A program made the translations under genes and the position numbers. From Centroscyllium fabricii (taxonomy: Eukaryota): DNA of 64,000 nucleotides. The notes below the pieces were generated by a model. That model worked only from the letters and a program-made list of their open reading frames with translations. It was not told the origin of the DNA and made no database searches. The stretch is from the NCBI GenBank assembly GCA_051313645.2, contig JBNRSN020000032.1:30442001-30506000 (forward strand), read 5' to 3'. This document shows positions 9,301-12,300 of the stretch, in pieces (the first letter of the stretch is position 1; each line of letters begins with the position of its first letter).

Positions 9301-12300
9301 AAACCGATTACCTGTAACTGCTGGAGCTCCTGGATATTATTCTCACACGTATGTTGCATGTCTCTCATTTGGGCTTCATGCTTTATTTGCTGATTTTGCT
9401 TTTCCATCTTTTGCTTTTTCTCTTCTTGCAGTCCAAACTATTTTTGAAAGTAACACCATATCACAAGTTAGAGAATGAGAAGGAAGTTATGTCAATATGA
9501 TTCATAATAGTCATTTTGAGCCACCTGTGCGCGTAACAGCGTCTTAATAATAATAATTCAACTTTGTCATTATACAATGTACAAGTACATGAACAACGAA
9601 ATGTGATCTTGCAAGCTCCCAAGAGTCCAGCAAAGCCGCTGCGTCTGTGCGTGCCGCCATTCCATCATTCCGACAATCTTCAGCCATCCGCCCCTCCCCA
9701 GGACCCCTTTCGTGACCTTCTGCACTTGGTATTAACTGGTGGTCACCCATCCAAGTACTAACCAGGCCTGGTTCTGCTTAGCTTCCAAGCCTTGCCAGTG
9801 ACCCTGTCCCTAGTCTCAGGAACAGGGCTTCTTGGTCGCTCAGGCTTCCCCGTCGGTGGTTCTGGCCCCTCGAGGTCGAGGCTTGGACCTGATATACTCG
9901 CTGGTGTCGTGCATCATCGCTTCCTCTTGAAGTTTGCGTGCCAGTTCAGCATCTTTCCACTCCAGGTCTTTGGCACTCATCCTCGAGATCATCTTGTCCA
10001 GGGAATGGAAGTAAATGTTGATTACCTAGTTTTTTCAGGGCACCTTCATTCTTTGAACAAAGGCATTCTCCATACAATAAAGGCCCTGCTGGGTTTCGTA
10101 CATATTGGACTTTAAAAATCAAAAGATTACTGTGGTGTGTGGCGAATGTAGAAGTTTGAACAATTGCCCTTCCTAACCACTACAAGCATACCTGTCAAAT
10201 TGAGTAATGAGTAGCCTAGAATTTATTACCTTTCCACCTAAAGCTGCATGAAAACAACTGTGTATGGAGAAATAAAAAGAAGCTTGGTCAAAAGGCAGAA
10301 ACTCATTTTCACCAAACTTGGATTTGCATTCAAAAATACACAAGAACATAACTCATCTAAAAAATCCACTGCGGATAAAAAAAATCTCCAGCTTGAGATA
10401 TTGGGCCAGATATTCCGACCCCTATGGGTCTGTACGAGGTGTGTACGCACCGTAGGGGCCTCGCAAGTGCCGGTTTCAGGCATGCGAAGTGCATGCGCTA
10501 AAACCCGACACTTCCGATCTGTCAAAAATTCTCTTGACAGATTCTCTGCCTGCCTGGGAAAAGGGCCTCCGCGGGCAGAGAGTTCCGCTTTCTGCACAAC
10601 TTCCGCCCGCTGAAAACCTTTAACAATCTTACGCGTGGTAAAAACAGGCGTAAAGCCTGCATTTTATCAGCATAAGAGTTTTTAAAAAATACATTTCCCC
10701 CCACTCATTTATAATTTCAAAATACTTAAAAAGGTTTATTTTTAGCCCCGTAAAAACCTAAATATTTTTCCAAAAAATTAAATATTTAACATTTAATTTA
10801 ATGTAATTTAACTGATTTTAAATGTGGGATTTAAAAAAAATGTATTTAATGTTTAGCTTTTTTTTAAAAAGCGACCCCCATTCATAATTTTGACAGATCT
10901 GCATGGAGAGACCCGTCAAAGGTGAGCAGGGGTATTCCCTTCTTTGATTGGTTCCCCATGGCCCACGTGATCCCAGGGATGCTTGCACACCGCCTGCGCC
11001 CCTGGGCTTCTGCGCATTTCGAAGAGGAGAGGCCCAGGACTGGAAGTCTCGGGACCTGCGGAGCCAGCAGGTAAATGCGTAGATTTTTCCCGATCGGAGG
11101 CATCTGCCTTTAGGAAGCCTCCAATCGGAAACCCTAGCCCTTATTCAGATTACATTTATATTATGGACAGCCTTTTCAACGATCAAAGAATATTGCTTGG
11201 TGTCAGACTTGGCTCAGTGGCATCAGTATGCATCATATCCAGAAGATCGTGGGCTCACGATTCACTCCAGAGACTCAAGCAGATCATTTAGACTGATACT
11301 TCAGTAAAGTACTGAGATAGTGTTACAGAAGTCTTGGATAAATGTTAAACTGAGGAATCATCTGATCACTCAGATGGAAATAAAAGATCCCATGACATTA
11401 TTTGAAGAGGAGCAGGGGAGTTTGATCGGTGTGCTGGCTGGCATTTATCCCTCAACCAACATCACCAAACAAACCTCAGAATATTTGGTCATTTATCTCA
11501 TTGCTATTTGTGGGACCTTACACAAACTGTCTGCCACAATTTCTTACATAACAGTATGGGGCATGGTAGCAGCGTGGTTATATTACTGAACTAGTAATCT
11601 AGAAGCATGGAGATACAAGTTCAAATCCCACCACAGCAGCTGGGGAATTTAAATTCAGTTAAATTAATCTGGAATAAAAAGCTAGCATCAGTTGTAAAAA
11701 CCCAATCTGGTTCACTAATGTCTGTAAGGGAAGAAAATCTGCTGCCCTCACCCAGTCTGGCCTATATGTGACTGCAGATCCACAGCTATGCACTTGACTC
11801 TTAACTGCCCTCGAAATGGCAAGCCACTCAGTTAAAGGCAATCAGTGATGGTCAATAAATGCTTTGCCAGCGAGGCCCACAGCCCGTGAATGAATTTTAA
11901 AAAAGTGACTGCACCTCATAAGTACTTCATTGACTGAAGTGCTCCAGGTGGAAGGTGCTATATAAATGCAAGTTCTTTCAATATTTTTAAAATGTTTCAA
12001 GCATTCCCAAATGTAACTACAGGTTGAGCACCGGTAATCCGGCATGGGCGGGACCAGGACCGTGCCGGGAAAGTGAAAAAAACAGTAGAATGAAGTCGGT
12101 CAGTGCGCGCATCATTCAAAATGGCCGTGCGCATGCGCACAATATTGGAAATGGCTGCCGAACGTCCTTGCTGAGTCTCAGCTGCGGTTTGTGCCTCCTG
12201 ACGACGGCCTGCAGGCTGCTCCGGGGAACCGCGCGCTTCACCATGGCGGGCGCTCGGGACTCGCATATTCAAAACGCAGCGCAAGTCGCCGCGTCCTGAC

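Follow-up and report, generated by a model that had tools for sequence, protein, structure and literature searches.

Exons of CCDC50 and STK10 joined to a 5S-derived SINE in Centroscyllium fabricii: a chimera probably retrotransposed twice

The STK10 locus and its cassette

The window considered here is a 64,000-nucleotide stretch of the genome of the shark Centroscyllium fabricii (GenBank assembly GCA_051313645.2, contig JBNRSN020000032.1, positions 30,442,001 to 30,506,000), across which 14 coding exons of the kinase gene STK10 have been placed. One STK10 intron holds a chimeric cassette, in which two exons of another gene, CCDC50, are joined to a short interspersed nuclear element (SINE) derived from 5S rRNA. 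The exons on either side (9312-9437 and 13416-13604) encode the PKK domain, in agreement with the original prediction, which had placed the cassette in an STK10 intron in sense orientation. It had also distinguished four modules, namely a short CCDC50-like open reading frame (ORF), a 5S rRNA segment, a GC-rich linker and a tail resembling a Rex1 long interspersed nuclear element (LINE), all of which lie on the minus strand where they had been read. Three junctions in this material coincide exactly with exon ends: that between the two CCDC50 exons, that between the second of them and the SINE, and, in a second copy of the cassette elsewhere in the genome, that between an STK10 exon and the cassette. 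The two copies share descent, and the SINE has ends derived from Rex1 (Table 1).

The cassette has a GC content of 55-56%, compared with 33-39% in its flanks (minus strand, window 9545-10030). Retention of CpG had been taken as a sign of a young insertion. This is a weak argument, since the observed/expected ratio of CpG is 0.59 in the cassette and 0.51 across the whole window; the SINE portion carries 10 substitutions from the column majority, compared with 1-11 (mostly 2-6) in the other 30 aligned copies. As had been remarked before, no clear target-site duplication surrounds the cassette, with at most a 4-mer common to both sides. The canonical STK10 junction, 13416 to 9437, is present in an RNA contig of a related organism.

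Table 1. Features of the STK10 intron and the cassette (positions in the window)
Feature	Position	Strand	Source or position in family copy L004	Remarks
STK10 coding exon upstream of the cassette	13416..13604	-		97-100% identity to shark STK10; GT donor at its end
Cryptic splice acceptor, intronic, immediately 5' of the insert	9993..10020	-		Pyrimidine tract; AG at 9994-9993
50-codon frame	9840..9992	-		Continues the STK10 frame if spliced at 9993; departs from that of CCDC50 at the shared 2-nt deletion
CCDC50 exon A, 5'-truncated	9912..9990	-	C224:3523632-3523554	Ends at its donor; encodes likely MIU-type helix
CCDC50 exon B, whole penultimate exon	9828..9911	-	C224:3509876-3509797	Ends at its donor; its last AG is the first AG of the SINE
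SINE head, non-5S	9789..9829	-	nt 1-41	Predicted 12-bp hairpin; replaces 5S nt 1-44
5S rRNA-derived internal promoter segment	9717..9788	-	nt 42-113	Box A, intermediate element (IE), box C
SINE middle	9662..9716	-	nt 114-168	No match in 12 Rex1 regions or 5S gene
First ~30 nt of Rex1 LINE	9632..9661	-	nt 169-198	28/30 to L132
Rex1-type 3' end, then (ATT)n	9545..9634	-	nt 196-278 (LINE part)	3 nt of AATAAA missing in the window copy
Next STK10 exon, canonical acceptor	9312..9437	-		108 nt downstream of the cassette; PKK

Exons of CCDC50 in the 5' extension

The 5' extension of the cassette has four matches in the genome, all of which were scored: the window itself, one place on C1, and two exons on C224 that lie 13.7 kb apart. 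Window 9990-9828 (minus strand) accordingly consists of two CCDC50 exons fused exactly at their splice sites, with the two exons between them skipped, instead of the single CCDC50 fragment that had been assumed. The skipped exons, of 45 and 141 nt, are included in RNA contigs of the related organism. The CCDC50 origin itself is well founded. In the source gene, PF15295 is found upstream and the exon matches 17 cartilaginous-fish CCDC50 proteins (best E 1e-14), and the ORF of the cassette (9992-9840, 50 amino acids) is 80-92% identical to shark CCDC50 proteins at 163-188. No Pfam family was found on this ORF, and the identity of CCDC50 came via the source gene. The helix that it encodes is presumably the first MIU motif. 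The domain layout of CCDC50 is given in PMC13059773. A second CCDC50 locus was considered as the source and rejected, exons A, B and C+D each having one genomic source. A second match to CCDC50_N (PF15295) is found at G000:C767:33571897-33572028 (L070) and is possibly a paralogue.

A 2-nt deletion in the CCDC50 part is common to the window and C1 copies. At several sites in exon B (G000:C224:3509797-3509876), some of them amino-acid changes, the cassette matches RNA of the related organism and not the gene of C. fabricii itself, and across exon B that RNA differs from the cassette by 3-4 letters. Since this RNA is closer to the cassette than the gene is, capture of the CCDC50 exons likely predates those changes.

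The SINE family and its LINE partner

Window 9829-9545 (minus strand) is one full-length member of an abundant 5S-derived SINE family, about 288 nt long. When the cassette was searched against the genome, 3,173 first-look candidates were obtained, of which 40 were scored; 38 of these match only the portion from about 9830 to 9545, with 93-96% identity and unrelated flanks. The original prediction had described a SINE3-like chimera with a host-gene fragment. It was right as to both SINE3 and the chimera, but 5S segment, linker and tail are no one-off combination, and the CCDC50 piece, lacking from thousands of copies, is not part of the SINE family. Three copies met by chance in 599,781 bases extrapolate to about 36,000 genome-wide with wide error, and the copy number is roughly 10^4-10^5; contig depth summed over the SINE exceeds that of unique DNA by a factor of about 10^5, a figure that is no measure of copy number. 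At the 5' end, AG precedes CCC in 10 of the 12 copies scored there (30 tail-selected loci); further copies are 5'-truncated.

The anatomy of the SINE was read on a natural copy close to the family majority (L004). Its head folds with a z of -2.2, 4 of 200 shuffles folding equally well, and the fold of the tail RNA is no better than those of shuffles (z -0.7). In L004, 64 of the 72 nt of the 5S segment agree with the 5S gene of this genome. Box A is at nt 47 in the SINE and at nt 50 in 5S, and the window copy has four further changes within this 72-nt stretch. The 5S assignment stands on the family copy; for the segment in the window, the Rfam model gives only 21.9 bits (E 0.33), below the gathering score of 38. 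The 5' end of 5S is indeed missing, but as a trait of the SINE family and not as a peculiarity of this cassette. Likewise, the GC-rich linker is present but is more than a linker, since the 5' terminus of Rex1 is included in it.

The tail had been compared to Rex1, and it matches the Rex1 LINE 3' end with 72-76% identity over 83 nt in 8 of 30 Rex1 loci, with shorter matches in three more. Both termini of one element, L132, are found in the SINE (28/30 nt at the 5' terminus, 73% identity at the 3' end). The 30-nt piece is a true LINE 5' terminus: 38 of 39 other matches begin at query position 12-19, and the upstream flanks differ from each other among the loci listed (15 of 20). L132 has endonuclease-like, reverse transcriptase (RT) and PF09004 parts and no ORF1, which Rex1 elements do not have (PMC13343379). 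Over long stretches its RT is nearly identical to REX-11_DR from the PMC3708506 supplement, as compared by eye and without a tree. Rex1 copies at L151-L170 share a fixed 5' end starting with ATG, often behind a short A run; first-look candidates numbered 1,946 with the Rex1 5' end and 78,250 with PF09004.

A 5S-homologous head with an internal promoter, short, non-coding and dispersed copies, a fixed 5' end and a LINE-shared tail, the characters tested for SINE3, were all found. Because it combines a 5S segment with the 5' terminus and the 3' end of Rex1, the SINE is classed by sequence as a bipartite Rex1-type SINE3. It is presumably transcribed by RNA polymerase III, and the RNA of the SINE or of the cassette may be mobilised by Rex1 RT through predicted recognition of the SINE tail. 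This type of SINE is apparently undescribed, as compared with open-licence literature and not with repeat libraries: no description of a 5S-headed, Rex1-tailed SINE, of a bipartite SINE from Rex1, of a shark SINE3 or of SINE- or Rex1-borne exon shuffling in cartilaginous fish was found in that literature, and the element may already be catalogued in Repbase or Dfam. Another element derived from 5S, which differs in its body and retains more of the 5' portion of 5S, adjoins a truncated copy of the present SINE family at G000:C678:52694450-52697527 (L078). Among other copies of the family (L077, L079, L089 and L100) are a tandem dimer and copies in which the head is duplicated or the 5' junction has extra, inverted bases derived from the flank.

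A second copy with a spliced STK10 exon

On C1 (C1:213658856-213659404), the cassette is present in full, and the 104 nt in front of it are identical to window 13519-13416. This portion (G000:C1:213658856-213658959) is the last 104 nt of the upstream STK10 exon, at 100% identity and up to its donor, and the sequence occurs at only two places in the genome, the window and C1. The donor is joined in C1 to window 9992, directly after the AG of the cryptic acceptor. In the window, the exon lies 3.4 kb upstream of the cassette on the same strand and flanks the intron that holds it. From this joining of donor to cryptic acceptor, the cassette was likely exonised by STK10 and then retrotransposed again, a second event that the window by itself does not reveal.

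The window and C1 copies have seven SINE substitutions in common, all of them in SINE nt 58-143 and none in nt 144-288. No other of the 61 copies has all seven: 47 share none of them, nine share one and three share two. Together with the shared 2-nt deletion, these substitutions indicate common descent of the two cassettes. Private changes are four substitutions, a 6-nt duplication and a 3-nt deletion in the window copy, and four substitutions in the C1 copy.

The C1 insertion is clean and lies within the end of a long terminal repeat, the empty form of which is found in three other loci, with only a TT overlap. At its 5' end, pieces of 185 and 22 nt have been copied from target DNA 0.3 and 0.6 kb downstream (G000:C1:213658655-213658859 vs 213659728-213660062; L047, L048). 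They are joined by overlaps of 1-4 nt, and the two 185-nt copies differ at two sites. The 5' junction is present in contigs of both DNA runs, in one of which a contig of 114 nt spans the exon-SINE junction and is identical to C1. Polymorphism of C1, suspected from a lower depth in run X13, is ruled out by the presence of the junction in both runs, and a tandem array, suggested by a 1053-nt backward joint, is accounted for by the 185-nt templated repeat.

Chance adjacency of the modules had been named as a danger. For it, or for a DNA rearrangement, independent insertions would have to be assumed, or C1 would have to be a segmental duplication or an assembly error; the unclear TSD around the cassette would fit such an origin. 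This is extremely improbable, and is already largely refuted: junctions exactly at exon ends, together with a second copy that shares them, indicate a chimera. All three junctions coincide with splice sites to the nucleotide, the two copies lie in unrelated flanks, and the C1 copy, seen with its 5' junction in both DNA runs, is without the 3.4-kb piece of the STK10 intron.

Only two chimeric copies, those of the window and C1, were found. A search for other host-exon chimeras among 58 open frames abutting 62 SINE copies revealed no host domain, and this screen is weak, since both known CCDC50 frames were missed. It recovered the control STK10 frame, and also one RT match from an insertion inside another LINE.

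Mechanism of exon capture

The cassette has probably been moved twice by Rex1 RT, which is predicted to recognise the SINE tail on an RNA that had been spliced onto the SINE. In the first step, an exon-skipping CCDC50 RNA would have been joined at its penultimate donor to the initial AG of the SINE, most likely by splicing, either to an intronic SINE copy that has since been lost or in trans. This RNA would have been reverse-transcribed from the tail and inserted, 5'-truncated and in sense, into the STK10 intron. In the second step, the product of which is seen on C1, STK10 pre-mRNA would have spliced into the cassette as an alternative last exon; the STK10-cassette RNA would then have been copied to C1, truncated within the STK10 exon, with nearby target DNA patched onto its 5' end. 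We infer this order of the two events.

For the second step, the best reading is that STK10 RNA was cis-spliced into the cassette and that the product was retrotransposed from the SINE tail, because no other process accounts for a join at the donor of precisely that intron in which the cassette lies. Both partners of the join that marks 5' transduction by splicing, donor 13416 and acceptor 9993, are present at the source locus. The cryptic acceptor is derived from the intron and is not part of the inserted element; since the insert begins 2 nt behind it, STK10 pre-mRNA could splice into the cassette. Upstream of its AG, 12 of 17 nt are pyrimidines, a level reached by 17 of the 230 AGs of the same intron, and the same score is 10-15 for nine real CCDC50 acceptors and 8 for the canonical STK10 acceptor. 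The spliced product is predicted to follow STK10 to about residue 855 of 980 and to add 48-50 new residues, starting with the CCDC50 helix. On these grounds, the cassette might have been kept as an alternative last exon of STK10, and one isoform of the kinase would then end in a ubiquitin-binding motif: splicing preserves the frame and adds the helix, and the spliced RNA must have been present in the germ line on at least one occasion. However, joining in frame has a 1-in-3 chance anyway, the frame shifts after the helix, AATAAA is lost in the window copy, and neither RNA support in contigs nor a sign of selection was seen, so that such an isoform is very unlikely. The copies in the window and on C1 are both probably non-functional retrocopies.

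Several observations weigh against two rounds of splicing and Rex1-driven movement. The STK10-cassette junction (13416 to 9992) was not found in RNA contigs from two runs of the related organism, where only the canonical junction was seen; assembled contigs drop rare forms, and missing cover in them is no evidence. The AATAAA hexamer is intact in C1, whereas 3 nt of it are gone in the window copy. As the C1 daughter has kept what the window copy lacks, a later deletion or conversion in the latter must be assumed, which is plausible but unproven; the same 3-nt deletion recurs on several SINE sequence backgrounds. A Rex1 subfamily with exactly the ends of the SINE was not found, all 11 pattern matches being SINE variants, and retrotransposition by Rex1 is a prediction from these ends. 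As for the first step, no SINE was found in 250 kb downstream of CCDC50 exon B, so that the source element expected for 5' transduction is not seen there, and the junction of exon B with the last exon in CCDC50 mRNA agrees in 7 of 9 nt with the 5' end of the SINE, in the top 2 of 1,004 positions.

The last two observations are those expected if the first junction arose otherwise, by template switching, with the second step unchanged. RT would have finished a free SINE RNA and jumped to a mature CCDC50 mRNA resembling the SINE 5' end. The junction, which is a donor and a top microhomology site at once, also matches at 8 of 11 nt, and it ranks in the top 2 of the 122 AG sites, other CCDC50 exon junctions scoring 2-5 of 9; CCDC50 RNA contigs align 4 nt beyond the exon end into the SINE, and no donor SINE is left in the CCDC50 gene. 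Jumps are evident in this system from the 185-nt and 22-nt target copies at C1 with their 1-4 nt overlaps, and duplicated heads and a dimer occur among 30 SINE copies. On the other hand, the matching stretch has a mismatch at its third position, the template would be an exon-skipping isoform that RNA contigs do not show, and a switch could land anywhere, even a well-matched site receiving no more than a few percent of the probability by rough estimate. Under splicing, the position of the donor is forced, and the donor of exon B precedes an 18.5-kb intron. Splicing is favoured because a spliced exon ends at a donor by necessity and a switch rarely reaches even a good site, and because donor-exact chimeras without a remaining element recur for L1 (PMC13174262). 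The template-switch chimera of the original prediction is thus no more than one of the two candidates for this junction. In our judgement, which was not computed, splicing to a lost intronic copy or in trans is somewhat likely, and template switching is a serious if lesser possibility.

A third source for the first step would be the SINE that now lies inside CCDC50 (C224:3521688-3521393, L039), joined through trans-splicing or re-splicing onto an excised lariat. It is the sole copy of this SINE family in 320 kb (C224:3,260,001-3,580,000), is located within the skipped segment and has a TAG acceptor context. This donor is improbable: it lies upstream of exon B, has none of the seven substitutions of the cassette, and carries an 8-nt duplication and two further characters that are found in copy L127 and not in the cassette. 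The duplication is homoplastic (18 of 61 copies), and the exclusion of L039 is not absolute. Independently of its role as donor, L039 is a sense SINE that ends 60 nt before the acceptor of the first skipped CCDC50 exon, and it might promote skipping of both exons.

Elsewhere in the window, a long inverted repeat of about 250 nt at 8172-8418 is like a miniature inverted-repeat transposable element and has a sub-threshold Rfam match to a miRNA precursor, and a tandem array with a period of about 82 nt and copies 96-98% identical occupies 55405-55857.

Implications

L1 accepts any poly(A) RNA, and tail-specific LINEs are considered 'stringent' (PMC3747384). Retrocopies and exon shuffling are mostly attributed to L1; here, by contrast, the tail of a SINE likely lent host exons to a tail-specific LINE twice, and pieces of two unlinked genes joined in frame make the case traceable. 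Starting with AG and carrying AATAAA and a Rex1 handle, the SINE may act as a portable last exon and provide a general L1-independent route of exon shuffling in sharks, a generalisation that is for the present rather doubtful. If it is true, a tail-specific LINE that normally ignores mRNAs could retrotranspose host exons in relay, sharks should hold many chimeras of exon and SINE, and the cassette would briefly have yielded an STK10 kinase tipped with the ubiquitin-binding helix of CCDC50. The first junction also suggests microhomology with the next exon as a test for chimeras that are now read as products of trans-splicing.

Comparison with known systems

The nearest known parallel is 5' transduction by SVA and L1 elements. 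SVA elements have acquired such transductions by splicing or exon trapping, as in SVA_F1 with MAST2 exon 1 and in the MRPS18A case (PMC12593883). There, as here, a host exon is spliced to a non-autonomous retroelement and carried to new sites. Unlike SVA, which belongs to the L1/poly(A) system, the present case involves a 5S SINE with a Rex1-type tail in a cartilaginous fish; internal coding exons of two genes are captured in series, the acceptor of the second step comes from flanking intron DNA and not from the element, and two copies are found instead of a subfamily. The chimeras of mRNA and LINE-1 in PMC13174262 resemble the CCDC50 junction in their donor-exact exon ends, the sense join to the element 5' end and the long intron, and 15 of 17 have no source element left in the gene. 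They contain mostly first exons and near full-length L1, whereas internal exons and a SINE are joined here. Against the 7/9 microhomology at the present junction, the word microhomology is absent from the main text of that paper.

The SINE itself resembles other SINE3 families (zebrafish SINE3, AmnSINE1, OS-SINE1 and HaSE3) in its 5S-derived head with an internal promoter and its LINE-derived tail. It differs from them in its Rex1 ends and in its head, which is of another kind and is followed by the 3' part of 5S alone; vertebrate SINE3s use LINEs of the CR1 clade (PMC7245038). The published shark SINEs HE1, SacSINE1 and CmiSINEs are tRNA-headed in the papers compared, in contrast to the 5S-derived element. 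In combining a small-RNA head with both termini of one LINE, it is like the bipartite SINEs Bov-tA, AfroSINE and HaSE. In PMC5786205, the sources given for bipartite elements are RTE, Ingi, Vingi and R2 alone, and Rex1 is not mentioned. SINE2-5_NV of a sea anemone is listed with Rex1 as its partner (PMC3747384), as here, but is tRNA-headed. In the literature compared here, the SINE extends two lists, that of vertebrate SINE3 partners (CR1 only) and that of LINE clades behind bipartite elements (without Rex1).

The fused gene PIPSL derives from adjacent genes. This PIP5K1A-PSMD4 retrogene joins a kinase gene in frame to a ubiquitin-binding motif (PMC3747384). As in the present case, two genes were fused at the RNA level and retrotransposed, with kinase and ubiquitin-binding motif in frame. 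PIPSL is an expressed gene, whereas here unlinked genes are joined via a SINE in a retrocopy with only 34 STK10 codons. Each step of the capture has a mammalian precedent; the bipartite Rex1-type SINE3 and the serial capture of exons from two genes are apparently new.

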